The notes under the pieces were generated by a model. The model worked only from the letters and a program-made list of their open reading frames with translations, made no database searches and had not been told where the DNA came from. This document shows, in pieces, positions 41,066 to 48,187 of a DNA stretch of 64,000 nucleotides. Position 1 is the first letter of the stretch. Every line of letters begins with the position of its first letter. Source of the stretch: an uncultured delta proteobacterium (GTDB lineage Bacteria; Myxococcota; Myxococcia; SLRQ01); contig CAVSGM010000011.1 of assembly GCA_963727485.1 (NCBI GenBank), positions 736,001 to 800,000 on the forward strand. Direction: 5' to 3'. The position numbers were made by a program, and so were the translations under genes.

Positions 41066-41725
41066 CTACGGTTTGCGGGGGGCCTCGCCGTGGGCCGGCT
41101 GCCCGTGGCCCGTGCCGTGGCCCGTCCCCCCCGCGAGATCGAGGGTGGCCACCACCCGCCCCCCGTGGACCCGCACCGTGAACCGCCTCGCCTGCTGCCC
41201 CTGGGTGAGGGCCCGGCCCCAGACCGCGAGCTGGTAGCGGCCGTCGGGGAGCTCGGGGAGGCGGAAGCGCCCGTGGTCGTCGGTGAGGGTGAAGTAGGGG
41301 TTCTGGAGGACCACCACGTAGGCCTCCATGGTGGGGTGGAGGGAGCAGAGCTGGGTGTAGACGCCGAGCTTGGTGAAGGTGTAGCTGCGCCGCTGCCCCG
41401 GGGGCCAGTTGCCCAGGTTGTAGCCCTCATGGTCGGGGGAGAAGACGTTGTGGACCATGTCGTCGGAGTTGAGGAAGTCGACGGTGGTGCCCCGCACCAC
41501 CGGGAGGACCTTGGGTACGAAGTGCATGTGGCGCTGGTCCATCACCCGGTGCCGGGTGGGCGGGGTGAAGTGGCCGGGCGCCTTCACCACGTAGACCAGC
41601 AGGTTGTCGGCGTCGGCGACGCCCTCGACCTTCCCGGAGACGACGCTCAAACGAACGGCCGCCGCCCCCCCGAGGAGGGAGGCGGCGGCCCAGAAGATGG
41701 CCAGGCGGCGAAGCGCACGGCCCAT
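41066..41725 (-). CDS. Exported cupredoxin-like protein with carboxypeptidase-regulatory-like beta domain (copy B)
   Basis: Signal-like N-terminus; DQRHMHFVP, NSDDMVHNV, CSLHPTM (H..CxxHxxM type-1 Cu set). Confidence 0.8.
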   Translation of the reverse strand: MGRALRRLAIFWAAASLLGGAAAVRLSVVSGKVEGVADADNLLVYVVKAPGHFTPPTRHRVMDQRHMHFVPKVLPVVRGTTVDFLNSDDMVHNVFSPDHEGYNLGNWPPGQRRSYTFTKLGVYTQLCSLHPTMEAYVVVLQNPYFTLTDDHGRFRLPELPDGRYQLAVWGRALTQGQQARRFTVRVHGGRVVATLDLAGGTGHGTGHGQPAHGEAPRKP

Positions 41726-41730
41726 GACTG

Positions 41731-44630: not shown

Positions 44631-45968
44631 CTAGTGCAGGCCGTACTTGGCCAGGCGGCGGTAGAGGGTCGCCGGATCCACCTCGAGCATGCGCGCGGCA
44701 CGCTCGCGGTTGCCTCCGGCGGCCCGGACCACGAAGGCGACGTGGCGCCGCTCGAAGTCCTCGACCGCGCGCTTGAGCGAGAGCGACGGCTCCTCCTCGG
44801 TGTCGAACTCCGAGGGGAGGTGCTCCACGGTGATGGGCCCGTTGCCGGCGAGGATGCAGGCGCGCTCGATGACGTTGGAGAGCTCGCGGACGTTGCCGGG
44901 CCAGGGGTAGCCGAGCAGCCGGCGCATCACCTCGTTCTCGATCGCCGGCGGCTTCTTGCCCTGGGCGGCCGCGTGCATCACCGCGAAGTGCTCCACCAGG
45001 GCCGGGATGTCCTCGGGCCGGGCGTTGAGCGCCGGGAGGGCGATGCGGAAGACGTTGAGCCGGAAGAAGAGGTCGCTGCGGAAGTGGCCGGCCTCGACCT
45101 CCTGCTGCAGGTCCTGGTTGGTGGCGGCGACCAGGCGGAAGTCGACCTTCACCGGCCGGTCGGCGCCTACCGGGAGCACCTCGTGGGACTCGAGGGCGCG
45201 CAACAGCTTGGCCTGGGTCTCCACCGGCATCTCGGCGATCTCGTCGAGGAACACGGTGCCGCCGCGGGCGGTGCGGAAGATGCCCTCGCGCGCCTGGTCG
45301 GCGCCGGTGAAGGCGCCCTTCTCGTGGCCGAAGAGCTGCGCCTCGATCATCTCCCGGGGCATGGCGGCCATGTTCACCGCCAAGAACTCCCGCTCCGAGT
45401 CCTGGGACCGCGCGTGGATCGCCCGGGCCACCAGCTCCTTGCCGGTCCCGGAGGCCCCGGTGACCAGGACCGTGGAGCGGGTGGGGGCGACCTTGTCGAC
45501 CAGGTCGAAGATCTGGCGCATCGCCGGGCCGTCGCCGACCATCCCCTCGTAGCCCTGGGTCAGGCGCAGGGCCTGGCGCAGGCGCACCACCTCGGCCTTC
45601 AGCGCCCGGTACTCGAGGAGGTTCTGGATCTTCTGCAGCAGGTCCTCGAAGACGATGGGCTTGAGCAGGTAGTCGTAGGCGCCGAAGCGCAGGGCCTCGA
45701 TGGCGGTCTCCACCGAGGCGTAGGCGGTGGTGATCAGCACCAGGGTCTCGGGCCGCTCGGCGATGAGGTGCTTGAGCAGGCCGATGCCGTCGAGGCGCGG
45801 CATCCGGATGTCGGTGAGCACCAGGTCGAAGTCCTGCTGCCGGGCCAGGTCCAGCGCCGCCTCGCCGTCCTCGGCGCCGGTGACCTCGTAGCCCGACCGC
45901 GAGAGGAACTCACAGAGGTTGATCCGGAGGATCTCCTCGTCCTCGGCGACCAGGATCCGATCGCTCAC
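44631..45968 (-). CDS. NtrC-family sigma-54 enhancer-binding response regulator
   Basis: REC (AEDE, DIRMP, KP), GASGTGKE, GAFTGA, FLDEI, WPGNVREL, Fis-type HTH. Confidence 0.96.
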   Translation of the reverse strand: MSDRILVAEDEEILRINLCEFLSRSGYEVTGAEDGEAALDLARQQDFDLVLTDIRMPRLDGIGLLKHLIAERPETLVLITTAYASVETAIEALRFGAYDYLLKPIVFEDLLQKIQNLLEYRALKAEVVRLRQALRLTQGYEGMVGDGPAMRQIFDLVDKVAPTRSTVLVTGASGTGKELVARAIHARSQDSEREFLAVNMAAMPREMIEAQLFGHEKGAFTGADQAREGIFRTARGGTVFLDEIAEMPVETQAKLLRALESHEVLPVGADRPVKVDFRLVAATNQDLQQEVEAGHFRSDLFFRLNVFRIALPALNARPEDIPALVEHFAVMHAAAQGKKPPAIENEVMRRLLGYPWPGNVRELSNVIERACILAGNGPITVEHLPSEFDTEEEPSLSLKRAVEDFERRHVAFVVRAAGGNRERAARMLEVDPATLYRRLAKYGLH

Positions 45969-48187
45969 GACACCGCCTCCGCCCGATGGCCGGTGCCCTC
46001 GTAGGGGAGCCGCACCGCGAACACCGTGCCCTCGGGCCCGGTCCGCTCCACCTCCAACCGTCCGTCCATGTCCTCGATGATACCGCGGCTGACGAAGAGC
46101 CCCAGGCCGGTGCCCCGACCGCTGGGCTTGGTGGTGAAGAAGGGCTCGAAGACCCGGCGCTGCACCGCCTCGGGGATCCCGGTGCCCGTGTCCCGGGCCC
46201 GGAGCACCACCAGGTCCCCCTCGAGGGTGGTGGTGAAGGTCAGGGTGCCGCCCTCGGACATGGCGTCGAGGGCGTTGATGCCGAGGTTGAGGAGCACCTG
46301 CACCAGGTGATCCTCCCGGGTGCGGATGCCCGGGAGGTGCTCGGCGAGGGCGGTCTCGATCTGGATGGTCCGGGCCCGCGGCTCGTGACGCAGGAGGCGG
46401 ACCACGTCCTCGACCACCTGGTTCGCCGACACCAGGGTGACCTCCTCGCGCTGGCGCCTTGCGAAGTCGACGATGTCGCGCAGCAGCCGGGAGATGCGCT
46501 CGACCTGCCGGCCCACGATGCCCAGGGTCTCCCGGGTGTGGGTCTCGTCGCCGCCCTCGGCGAGCTTCAGCTGGCTCTGGATGGCGGCCAGGGGGTTGCC
46601 GATCTCGTGGGCCACCCCGGCGGCCAGCAGGCCGAAGGCCGCCATCTTCTCCTGGTGCATCATCTGGGCCTGCACCTGCCGCTCGGCGGTGACCACCCGC
46701 GCGATCTCCACCACCGAGCCCACCTCGCCCGCGTGGTCGTGCACCGGGTAGGTCTCCACGTGGAAGATTTCGGTGCCGCCGAGGGTGTGCTGGGTCCGGT
46801 CCACCGAGACCGTCCGGCCGGTGGCCAGGGTCTGCTCGGCGGGGCACCCGGAGTGGTCGGCGGTGTCGAAGGCCTCGCAGCAGTGGGAGCCCACCACAGT
46901 GTCCCCGTGGAGGCGCCGGGCGGTGTCGTTGGCCTGGGTGACGACGAGATCGCGATCGTAGACCAGGACCCGGTAGTCGATGGAGTTGAGGAGCAGCTCG
47001 CTGAAGCGCCGGCTCTCCTCGAGGCTCCGGGTCCGCTCCTCGACCCGGTGCTCCAGCAGCCGGTAGGAGTCGGCGAGGGCCTCGCTCATCTCGTTGAAGG
47101 TCCGCGCCAGGTGGGCGACCTCCTTGGGGCCCTTGGGGGGCACCCGGGCGCCGAGGGCCCCGCCGGTGAGACGGGCGGCGGCGTCGGCCAGGGCCTCGAG
47201 GGGCCGCACCAGCCCCCGGGAGGTGAAGAACACCGCCAGGGTGAGGAGGATCGCCAGCGCGGTGCCCATGGCGACCGCCTGGGCCCGGATGTGGTGGAGG
47301 CTGGCCAGGGCCGCCGAGAGGGGCTCCTCGACCACCACCCCCGCGGGGATCCCCGAGAGGGGCGCGTAGGCGACGATGGCGTCGTCCCCGCCGGGGAGCT
47401 CCCAGGTCGCGGTGTGGGTCCCTCGACCGAGGCCGCCGTGGGCGAGGTCGAGGTGGTCCGGGGCGGTGCGGTCGTCGGCGAGGGAGGTGGCGAGGACCCG
47501 ACCGGCGTCGTCGACCAGGTAGAGGGCGGCGTGGCTGGTCCGCTCCCGGCCCACGTGGACCAGGGCGTCGTGGATGCGGAAGCGGAAGCGGCCGCAGAAG
47601 TAGCCGAGGAAGTGCCCGAGGCTGTCGTGGACCGGCGTGGTCACCGAGAGCACCGGCTCGTCGCCCTGGGAGGCGAAGCCGGGGAGGCTCCCGGCGTCGG
47701 GCCCGAGGGTGCGGCAGGCCGGGAGCGTCGAGCCCAGGGGCCGCTCCGGGTGGGAGGTGCCCATGACCGTCCGGTCCGGGGCCAGGACCAGGAACTCCCG
47801 GGCGTCGGCGTCCTCGGCCACCTTGGCCCGCAGGAGGCGCTCCAGGGCGTTCTCCACCGACTGGCGGGTCTCCTGGGTGGTCACGCCCTTGATGCTGCGC
47901 AGGAGGCCGAAGAGGTGCTCGTTGCCCGCCACCAGGGAGGAGACCAGGGCCCGCTTCGAGGCGACGAAGCCGCTGGACTCGGAGGCCGCCAGGGAGGCCA
48001 CGTTGCGCACGTTCCGGTCGGCGGTGGCGTGCACGTAGCGGCCGGTCTGGATGTAGCCCCAGAGGTTGGTGATGAGCAGGGGCCCGAGGGAGAAGATGAT
48101 GAAGAGGAGGAAGAGGCGCTGCGCCAGGCTCCGCTCGCGCGTGGGGCGGCCCTCCGTGCCCCCCGGCGCGGTGTCGTGCGCAGACAT
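45965..48187 (-). CDS. Sensor histidine kinase (periplasmic Cache-like, HAMP, Cys-rich PAS, HisKA, HATPase)
   Basis: 2 TM, AHEIGNPL, QVLLNL, DTGTGI, FFTTK, GTGLGL; coupled to the regulator. Confidence 0.94.
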   Translation of the reverse strand: MSAHDTAPGGTEGRPTRERSLAQRLFLLFIIFSLGPLLITNLWGYIQTGRYVHATADRNVRNVASLAASESSGFVASKRALVSSLVAGNEHLFGLLRSIKGVTTQETRQSVENALERLLRAKVAEDADAREFLVLAPDRTVMGTSHPERPLGSTLPACRTLGPDAGSLPGFASQGDEPVLSVTTPVHDSLGHFLGYFCGRFRFRIHDALVHVGRERTSHAALYLVDDAGRVLATSLADDRTAPDHLDLAHGGLGRGTHTATWELPGGDDAIVAYAPLSGIPAGVVVEEPLSAALASLHHIRAQAVAMGTALAILLTLAVFFTSRGLVRPLEALADAAARLTGGALGARVPPKGPKEVAHLARTFNEMSEALADSYRLLEHRVEERTRSLEESRRFSELLLNSIDYRVLVYDRDLVVTQANDTARRLHGDTVVGSHCCEAFDTADHSGCPAEQTLATGRTVSVDRTQHTLGGTEIFHVETYPVHDHAGEVGSVVEIARVVTAERQVQAQMMHQEKMAAFGLLAAGVAHEIGNPLAAIQSQLKLAEGGDETHTRETLGIVGRQVERISRLLRDIVDFARRQREEVTLVSANQVVEDVVRLLRHEPRARTIQIETALAEHLPGIRTREDHLVQVLLNLGINALDAMSEGGTLTFTTTLEGDLVVLRARDTGTGIPEAVQRRVFEPFFTTKPSGRGTGLGLFVSRGIIEDMDGRLEVERTGPEGTVFAVRLPYEGTGHRAEAVS

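Follow-up and report, generated by a model that had tools for sequence, protein, structure and literature searches.

A predicted Cyc2-family cytochrome-porin with two putative blue-copper partners and a candidate sigma-54 switch in an uncultured member of the Myxococcota

Does a short row of genes in an uncultured delta proteobacterium (Myxococcota; GenBank assembly GCA_963727485.1) encode a path for electrons across the outer membrane, and if so, in which direction and to which partner would they flow? The question is raised by a 64-kb stretch of contig CAVSGM010000011.1 (positions 736,001 to 800,000; the whole stretch is called the window below), in which the genes of a sensor histidine kinase and an NtrC-type activator, an 852-bp gap, a gene for a monoheme beta-barrel protein (the barrel gene) and the genes of two cupredoxins, A and B, follow each other co-directionally on the minus strand (Table 1). 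An earlier note, made from the letters alone, had described these five genes, a strong hairpin beside tRNA-Met and a sigma-54 promoter, and had read them as a self-contained electron conduit built around a Cyc2-like protein, of a kind without a known characterized example in a myxobacterium-like host. All five genes were found again in the sequence, and the Cyc2 type, the linkage to cupredoxins, the sigma-54 site and the coincidental nature of the adjacent nuo genes held up, while the notions of a self-contained module and of its rarity in myxobacteria had to be given up.

By every published sequence and fold criterion that we tested, the barrel protein is predicted to be a member of the Cyc2 family. 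Such proteins are described as having a signal peptide, a single CXXCH, the motif AXPXFAR[Q/K][T/Y] (called unique to Cyc2, and placed "5 amino acids upstream"), PXL four residues past CXXCH, no fewer than 365 aa and a porin of 16 strands that structurally resembles OprO/OprP (Keffer 2021). The barrel protein has a signal peptide, 465 aa and a C-terminal Phe, and its sole CXXCH, i.e. CTTCH at residues 43-47, is found in the context ATPAMA-IPAFARKY-HTS-CTTCH-TVF-PKL, with AIPAFARKY three residues ahead of it. Among 238 full-length homologues that were fetched, 234 have exactly one CXXCH and 214 the strict motif. P33, R37, Y39, C43, C46 and H47 are invariant in an alignment of the family, and P51 and L53 of the PXL element, as well as the 25-residue cytochrome motif as a whole, are nearly so. 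The family is large, as 1234 of 8000 scored candidates reached E <= 0.001, a threshold passed also by 2491 representatives of 50%-identity clusters, 167 of them at E <= 1e-30.

The barrel that the earlier note had predicted, together with its heme domain, also emerged from structure prediction. An AlphaFold2 model based on an 84-sequence alignment (predicted local distance difference test score, pLDDT, 90.5; predicted template modeling score, pTM, 0.86) shows short helices between residues 33 and 90 and, from 106 to 464, 16 long strands; the small helical heme domain would comprise approximately residues 30-105. When the model was compared with the PDB by Foldseek, the top matches were 16-strand porins, including OprP (2o4v, rank 2, E 4.6e-11) and OprO (4rjx, rank 8, E 8.4e-10, and 4rjw, rank 15). 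At the sequence level, the protein had no match in Pfam or NCBIfam, a PDB search with the family profile gave 0 matches, and a scan of metagenome contigs with the single barrel protein resulted in 71 pattern matches and zero relatives. The more distant named relatives that were reached were only plasmid-borne open reading frames (ORFs) of Ralstonia, Caballeronia and Methylocystis. The Ralstonia solanacearum megaplasmid ORF, which is followed by a dihaem cytochrome c gene, reads AVPAFARQT-GMA-CMACH-VSF-PEL with the same three-residue spacing, and the family profile matches the Ralstonia Cyc2-type ORF in the cytochrome domain and the first strands, with a probability of 98.2% (E 5e-14). Ralstonia is among the genera listed as having Cyc2 homologues (Keffer 2021).

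Cupredoxins A and B are, judged by their ligand sets and the modeled fold, type-1 (blue) copper proteins, and both are thus predicted to bind copper. They exceed the Pfam Copper-bind cut-off of 21.2 bits with 24.6 and 31.0 bits, respectively, and share an architecture of a signal peptide, a type-1 copper domain and a C-terminal CarboxypepD_reg/fn3_3-like beta-sandwich, at a mutual identity of 39%. Cupredoxin A has the ligands His95, Cys130, His133 and Met136, the last three in the loop CSIHPEM, which in cupredoxin B reads CSLHPTM. All four ligands are invariant across 46 aligned sequences, both window cupredoxins included, and the pattern His...Cys-x2-His-x2-Met, mostly as C[SKN][IVL]HPEM, is kept in 79 of 80 cupredoxin ORFs from the related loci treated below. 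The model of cupredoxin A (pLDDT 89.2) was matched by Foldseek to single-domain type-1 copper proteins, i.e. 5fc9, pseudoazurin, amicyanin and plastocyanin. At its C terminus (window 41066-41150), cupredoxin B carries a His/Gly-rich tail, GTGHGTGHGQPAHGE, which is absent from cupredoxin A and may be a metal-binding tail.

To what would such a pair of heme and copper proteins be connected? By scanning species-representative genomes with a 32-sequence alignment, we found 189 loci encoding a relative of the barrel protein. The best 80 of these (numbered with L below, and their genomes with G) were searched by tblastn with the window proteins and with subunits of alternative complex III (ACIII; ActA to ActD are subunit genes) from three class relatives. 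All 80 belong to Myxococcota and Acidobacteriota; carriers include the cultured Anaeromyxobacter terrae SG22 and A. oryzisoli SG63, Kofleriaceae, Haliangiales, Polyangia, Sandaracinaceae, Thermoanaerobaculaceae and Terriglobia, and many are metagenome-assembled genomes (MAGs) of Anaeromyxobacteraceae and Thermoanaerobaculaceae. A cupredoxin match was found in 74 of the 80 loci, so that the linkage proposed earlier is conserved, and an Act match in 57. The barrel gene was joined to an ACIII operon in 56 loci, most commonly in the order barrel-cupredoxin-ActA-ActB-ActC-ActD (45 loci), and otherwise as barrel-kinase-regulator-cupredoxin-ACIII (five), ACIII-barrel (five) or barrel-ACIII (one). Seven loci had barrel-cupredoxin with at least 3 kb downstream lacking an ACIII match, five had the same pair on contigs too short to judge, six had cupredoxin-barrel, and another six had other arrangements, two of these with less than 1.5 kb downstream.

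A second type of partner was found among the cupredoxin-barrel loci. Three of the six (L025, L038 and L053) were examined by Pfam, and in all of them a GltD-like Fe-S flavoprotein of the NAD(P)H type is encoded next, followed by a Rieske protein in L038 and L053 and by cytochrome b in L025 and L053, with an additional 899-aa multihaem cytochrome in L053. The set recalls the flavoprotein-bearing Rieske/cytochrome b complexes that have been described for anammox bacteria. Two barrel-cupredoxin loci (L031 and L036) have a dihaem cytochrome c upstream. Three genomes (G006, G007 and G019) possess both a housekeeping ACIII, with ActD at 184-204 bits, and a divergent, barrel-linked one, with ActD at 78-105 bits. 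Taken together, gene order points to a conserved core of barrel and copper protein, whose usual partner is predicted to be a dedicated quinone-pool complex. The module is consequently not self-contained, since its relatives join the barrel-cupredoxin pair to ACIII or to a flavoprotein/Rieske/cytochrome b set, and the window lacks any such part.

Some variants of these loci were also observed. The barrel gene stands after, not before, cupredoxin-ActA-ActB-ActC-ActD in L019, L021, L023, L063 and L092, and in L021 a 356-aa ORF without a Pfam match lies between ActD and the barrel gene. In L015 (633-6440, in relative G006), the barrel-cupredoxin-ACIII operon adjoins a 917-aa nitrogenase-component-1-type ORF and a GAF/sigma-54 (NifA-like) activator.

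In the phylum of the host, the barrel protein is neither rare nor evenly spread. Among 401 sampled genomes, 42 (the genome of the window included) match it at E <= 1e-30, with 21 of 67 in one family and 7 of 172 in a large-genome family. A metagenome survey already lists Cyc2 in Myxococcota, and "deltaproteobacterial" sequences appear in a Cyc2 phylogeny paper. To our knowledge, no member of this barrel family from Myxococcota has been characterized.

How, then, did the window come to have the pair alone? Its genome (G000) has a single barrel gene and one ACIII operon, which is situated on another contig (C2:804983-812378), is followed by genes of a caa3-type oxidase (through C2:817414), and includes the only ActD of the genome (C2:810083-810580), beside the oxidase genes. 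Cupredoxin B in the window is followed not by ActA-ActD but by the hairpin and tRNA-Met, and no inner-membrane partner is encoded in the cluster itself, which corrects the first reading. In a quick maximum-likelihood tree, with SH-aLRT (Shimodaira-Hasegawa-like approximate likelihood ratio test) values as its only support measure, the window barrel protein is sister to that of L017 with a support of 97. L017, a Myxococcales MAG, has the order barrel-kinase-regulator-cupredoxin-ACIII, with a regulator 64% and a kinase 44% identical to those of the window. In L017-type loci, ACIII is preceded by a B-type cupredoxin (55% identity and 202 bits to B versus 45% and 147 bits to A), and the gene type that leads into ACIII there thus leads into a terminator and a tRNA here. 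The window copy would accordingly represent a cut-down form without its own ACIII, which was either lost or never present.

The surroundings point the same copy out as an insertion. The barrel gene is absent from all four genomes of the window's own family. Three of these relatives hold the symporter gene that flanks the window's cluster and tRNA-Met on one contig, and two of them (G002 and G003) match the nuo genes there too. In G002, the contig with the homologues of the symporter and nuo genes ends in tRNA-Met, with which the next contig also begins; across this join of two contigs overlapping in the tRNA, a homologue of the small Rieske gene of the window lies approximately 1.26 kb from tRNA-Met, versus 9.06 kb in the window. 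Relative to G002, the cluster is therefore predicted to lie in an insertion next to tRNA-Met, and this form is apparently mobile. The earlier note had allowed that the neighboring nuo cluster could be coincidence, and this appears to be the case, as family relatives in which the cluster is absent have both the symporter gene and tRNA-Met; a functional link to the nuo genes was dropped on the same grounds. A role for the small Rieske gene (50013-50324) was also dropped, on the grounds that this gene is conserved among relatives and not part of the insertion. The nuo row itself (window 32194-38942) looks incomplete, consisting of nuoA, a fused B/C ORF, D, a short molybdopterin-type fragment ORF, H and I, and nuo E, F and G were possibly missed between 35145 and 36828 by crude ORF picking. 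Another ORF (window 50350-51492) has a long His/Gly/Asp-rich run, HGHGHGHGHPVHGDAHGHDHGD, ahead of a C-terminal part named by eye as MoaB/MogA-like.

Within the cluster, the GTG start of the activator gene overlaps the kinase stop as GTGA, 50 bp separate the barrel gene from cupredoxin A, and 5 bp separate the two cupredoxin genes. The hairpin noted earlier is indeed strong (-56.8 kcal/mol, z -7.2, with 0 of 200 shuffles as stable) and reaches, 3' of cupredoxin B, the 3' end of the plus-strand tRNA-Met.

Control of the barrel and cupredoxin genes by a sigma-54-dependent two-component system is predicted from the domains of the activator, the -24 GG/-12 GC element and the presence of rpoN in the genome. 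The promoter element begins 64 bp ahead of the barrel ATG, differs by one mismatch from TGGCAC-N5-TTGCW, and is one of two sigma-54-type sites in total on both strands of the window. Of the 80 loci, 29 had such sites in the 450 bp ahead of the barrel gene, and the density of the sites was 0.81/kb upstream of the barrel gene versus 0.083/kb elsewhere, an approximately ten-fold enrichment. Among the 15 loci in which a sigma-54 regulator was matched, 12 had such a site, as compared to 17 of the 65 others. In L017, 17 kb contain exactly two plus-strand sites, which flank the orthologous kinase-regulator pair: the first precedes the barrel gene and the second cupredoxin-ACIII.

Orthologues of the activator (58-67% identity) occur in seven related loci, and those of the kinase (40-46%) beside the barrel gene in L017, L025, L026, L070, L076, L081, L082 and L087. 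A perfect palindrome, unique in the window, precedes the -24 element by approximately 110 bp and is separated by 15 bp from the end of an insertion sequence (IS). It has 17 matches in the 80 loci, nine of which are found at most 500 bp upstream of the barrel gene, in L017, L070, L076, L087, L082 and L045. An orthologue of the regulator is encoded in the first four of these six loci, and L082, whose contig is short, encodes an orthologue of the kinase. The sigma-54 promoter seen in the first reading is thereby substantiated as a site that recurs, together with the palindrome, in loci with an orthologous regulator, and we consider the palindrome a candidate binding site of the activator. As for the signal, the periplasmic region of the kinase is Cache-like, with a dCache_1 match of 42.0 bits, below the 45-bit cut-off. 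The PAS domain contains a Cys-rich stretch, HCCEAF...HSGCP (window 46700-46900, residues ~430-460), and orthologous kinases hold C-x-CP or CPxC at the matching position, with CCE.F...CP also in L025. A role of this stretch in the sensing of metals or of redox state is possible.

The 852 bp that separate the regulator gene from the barrel gene are not plain spacer but consist mostly of an IS1182-family remnant, which the first reading had overlooked. It is 91% identical to both ends of a full element elsewhere in the genome (C4:87206-88855, with a 480-aa transposase) but lacks approximately 983 internal bp of the transposase gene, and an ORF for a transposase fragment (44120-44701) matches Pfam DDE_Tnp_1_6 and NCBIfam transpos_IS1182. 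The remnant abuts the stop codon of the regulator, whose last two codons would hence lie in IS-derived sequence. It is not an assembly artefact, because metagenome contigs from two runs, among which the source sample may be, bridge both junctions with 0-1 differences; the contigs, built from reads of four DNA runs, are 150-550 bp long, too short to show the whole cluster arrangement. The genome has one full copy of this IS family and at least two internally deleted ones with both ends, resembling miniature inverted-repeat transposable elements (MITE-like), including a partial one at C3:532908-533525.

Table 1. Features of the cluster and its borders (window positions; the cluster reads on the minus strand).
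Feature	Position	Strand	Basis
Sensor histidine kinase, 740 aa	45965-48187	-	Pfam HAMP, PAS_4, HisKA, HATPase_c
NtrC-type sigma-54 activator (response regulator)	44631-45968	-	REC, Sigma54_activat (223.5 bits), AAA lid, HTH_8, GAFTGA
IS1182-family remnant, internally deleted	43969-44637	-	both ends kept; DDE_Tnp_1_6 and transpos_IS1182 matches
Perfect palindrome CTCGCA-N4-TGCGAG, candidate activator-binding site (enhancer)	43938-43953		motif match
Sigma-54-type -24/-12 element TGGCCC-N5-TTGCT	43827-43842	-	motif match
Barrel gene, predicted Cyc2-family fused monoheme cytochrome-porin, 465 aa	42381-43778	-	motif, AlphaFold2, Foldseek
Cupredoxin A, 199 aa	41731-42330	-	Pfam Copper-bind, copper ligands, model
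Cupredoxin B, 219 aa	41066-41725	-	Pfam Copper-bind, copper ligands
Stem-loop, then U-rich run, likely terminator of the barrel-cupredoxin transcript	~40971-41014	-	folding energy
tRNA-Met, landmark at one border of the inserted stretch	40894-40970	+	tRNA call

What would this cluster do for its host? The reading to which we give about an even chance is that of an Fe(II)-type uptake path, in which a Cyc2 porin and blue-copper proteins lead electrons to the respiratory chain under a sigma-54 switch operated by the adjacent kinase and activator. Dissolved Fe(II), or a similar soluble reductant, would enter the porin and give electrons to the heme, whose domain would plug the periplasmic mouth of the barrel. 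The cupredoxins would take the electrons over from the heme, as rusticyanin does in Acidithiobacillus, and pass them to the caa3-type oxidase and/or the single housekeeping ACIII, with Fe(II) to heme to cupredoxins to caa3 oxidase as the favored route in this genome and ACIII as an optional link. The Cache-like region and the Cys-rich PAS region of the kinase would serve to perceive a metal or redox cue, and the pair of kinase and NtrC-type activator would then turn on the sigma-54 promoter. Between uptake and outward flow, we favor the uptake of Fe(II). The Cyc2 proteins with verified activity, namely those of A. ferrooxidans, Leptospirillum (Cyt572) and Mariprofundus ferrooxydans (Cyc2PV-1), are iron oxidases, and a single heme in a narrow porin has been argued to suit dissolved Fe2+ (Keffer 2021).

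Several observations weigh against this. At 93% completeness, no RuBisCO and no FixO (cbb3 oxidase) were found in the genome, which makes lithoautotrophic iron oxidation unlikely. Since there are in addition only approximately 11 ORFs with at least four CXXCH, the cluster would rather provide a heterotroph with additional energy or with a means to detoxify Fe(II). Many carriers belong to Anaeromyxobacter or Thermoanaerobaculaceae, groups with a reputation as Fe(III) reducers. ACIII is established as a quinol:electron-acceptor oxidoreductase, with the cupredoxin auracyanin as the periplasmic acceptor in Roseiflexus, which favors outward flow. As regards the Cyc2 assignment, the Ralstonia match spans just 110 N-terminal columns, and the window subfamily has a conserved insert of approximately 35 residues in the cytochrome domain (PG.D.D...VWP; P68...W96, P97, P105), which is absent from the Ralstonia Cyc2-type protein. 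Neither does the cupredoxin/CarboxypepD_reg type appear to be exclusive to a conduit, because two putatively paralogous ORFs elsewhere in the genome, identified by their C-x2-HP-x-M loop (C1:667171-667890 and C2:1725227-1726156), stand alone, with no cytochrome or porin neighbors. Lastly, the window copy is possibly a decaying remnant, since it is without the ACIII that most relatives have.

The alternative that survives best, which we regard as possible yet clearly less probable than Fe(II) uptake, is the reverse flow. Quinol would be oxidized by ACIII, in this genome the housekeeping one, and electrons would pass over the blue-copper proteins, reduced in the way auracyanin is, and the Cyc2-type heme to a dissolved oxidant outside the cell, for instance chelated Fe(III), complexes of Mn(III) or humic quinones, i.e. 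a copper-based extracellular respiration of soil and sediment heterotrophs. The co-operonic ACIII in 56 of the 80 loci is what this would lead one to expect, and so is the quinol-oxidizing ACIII of Roseiflexus with its auracyanin; the host lacks RuBisCO, and the carriers include the two cultured Anaeromyxobacter species, from a family, Anaeromyxobacteraceae, for which extracellular electron transfer (EET) is reported. However, every Cyc2 of verified activity named in Keffer 2021 is an Fe(II) oxidase, and the small number of multiheme ORFs does not resemble that of a dedicated metal reducer. Type-1 copper proteins usually have high potentials, to which few extracellular acceptors would be suited, and ferrihydrite would not. 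The loci with a GltD-like flavoprotein and Rieske/cytochrome b would also fit uptake better, by their likeness to the anammox complexes.

An improbable but more defensible alternative than the last one below is that the islet next to tRNA-Met lost its ACIII by rearrangement and is now stranded, with little or no respiratory role and at most a periplasmic buffering of redox or metals (Fe/Cu). Its presence in none of the four family relatives, the insertion relative to G002, the IS1182 remnant inside the cluster, the single ACIII of the genome and the terminator and tRNA in the position that ACIII holds behind the B-type cupredoxin of L017 are all consistent with such a fate. On the other hand, all five ORFs are intact with a high third-position G+C, the heme motif, copper ligands, promoter and palindrome are preserved, and the IS ends 15 bp outside the palindrome. 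Furthermore, the seven ACIII-less barrel-cupredoxin loci with at least 3 kb downstream form a well-supported clade of their own in other genomes, and the ACIII-less form can thus be stable. That the barrel protein is an ordinary porin which happens to hold a CXXCH, with cupredoxins serving an unrelated process, is very improbable in spite of its missing Pfam, NCBIfam and PDB sequence matches and its likeness to general porins, given the nearly invariant cytochrome motif with its six invariant residues, the single CXXCH in 234 of 238 homologues and a gene order with cupredoxins and quinol-oxidizing complexes kept across two phyla.

Compared to the characterized Cyc2 proteins (Cyc2PV-1 of M. ferrooxydans, Cyc2 of A. 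ferrooxidans and Cyt572 of Leptospirillum), the barrel protein has the same signal peptide, CXXCH, flanking motifs, length above 365 aa and 16-strand OprO/OprP-like porin, but it differs by its ARKY-type motif and by its hosts, which are heterotrophs of the Myxococcota and Acidobacteriota. The rus operon of Acidithiobacillus ferrooxidans has the order cyc2-cyc1-orf-coxBACD-rus. Like it, the window encodes a Cyc2-type outer-membrane cytochrome together with a periplasmic, electron-carrying blue-copper protein. Unlike it, the window cluster has neither cyc1 nor oxidase genes (no cytochrome c or oxidase gene was found among the ORFs of 41066-48187 by Pfam), appears to be under sigma-54 and two-component control, and belongs to neutrophilic hosts; its cupredoxins are amicyanin/plastocyanin-like with a CarboxypepD_reg domain, where the rus operon has rusticyanin.

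A model for neutrophilic, microaerophilic iron oxidizers, in which Cyc2 is linked through Cyc1 to ACIII or bc1, has been derived from co-occurrence and proteomics (Barco 2015, as given in He et al. 2017). That model shares with the present subfamily a Cyc2 in the outer membrane, a soluble carrier in the periplasm and, on the side of the inner membrane, ACIII as partner. The genes of the model co-occur in genomes, whereas here they form one gene row in 56 of the 80 loci, a copper protein takes the place of the cytochrome Cyc1 as carrier, and the window itself lacks the ACIII part. The pairing of ACIII with a periplasmic type-1 copper redox partner resembles ACIII-auracyanin of Roseiflexus and Chloroflexus, by description, but those systems are described without an outer-membrane cytochrome-porin. 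Auracyanin, which is tethered to the membrane, takes part in photosynthesis or respiration. Heme-based transfer through an outer-membrane barrel is shared also with MtrCAB, MtoAB and PioAB, which are described as using 26-strand barrels and separate decaheme cytochromes that reach solids, in contrast to the one heme fused to a 16-strand barrel here. In the literature searched, whose coverage excludes most subscription journals and the supplements of the Cyc2 papers, we found no description of the subfamily's fixed cupredoxin/CarboxypepD_reg pairing, of a co-operonic ACIII or Rieske/cytochrome b partner, or of sigma-54 control. What the window would contribute beyond these features is a minimal islet that lacks ACIII, encodes cupredoxins of two types and contains both an IS remnant and a candidate operator.

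Iron oxidation in metagenomes is called mainly from the presence of Cyc2, although only few proteins, from acidophiles and Zetaproteobacteria, have been characterized, and the periplasmic and inner-membrane steps after it are a long-standing hypothesis resting on co-occurrence. The subfamily described here puts cytochrome-porin, copper carrier and quinone-pool complex in one row across two phyla, accompanied by a regulator, a promoter and a candidate operator, and the route and its signal are thereby testable by genetics, for which Anaeromyxobacter terrae SG22 and A. oryzisoli SG63 are culturable carriers. A tentative broader interpretation, which we hold to be less probable than not by some distance, is that of an unrecognized, widespread copper-dependent EET module of soil and sediment Myxococcota and Acidobacteriota, working outward as an Fe(III)/humic reductase or reversibly. 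It would consist of a Cyc2-type porin-cytochrome, a copper carrier with a beta-sandwich docking domain, its own ACIII or Rieske/cytochrome b paralogue and a sigma-54 two-component switch, while the islet in the window would be a mobilizable version that plugs into the housekeeping ACIII and oxidase. Cyc2 matches in heterotrophic, Fe(III)-reducing lineages may not signify iron oxidation, and if this broader interpretation is true, the label Cyc2 in genome surveys would not by itself mark that process.

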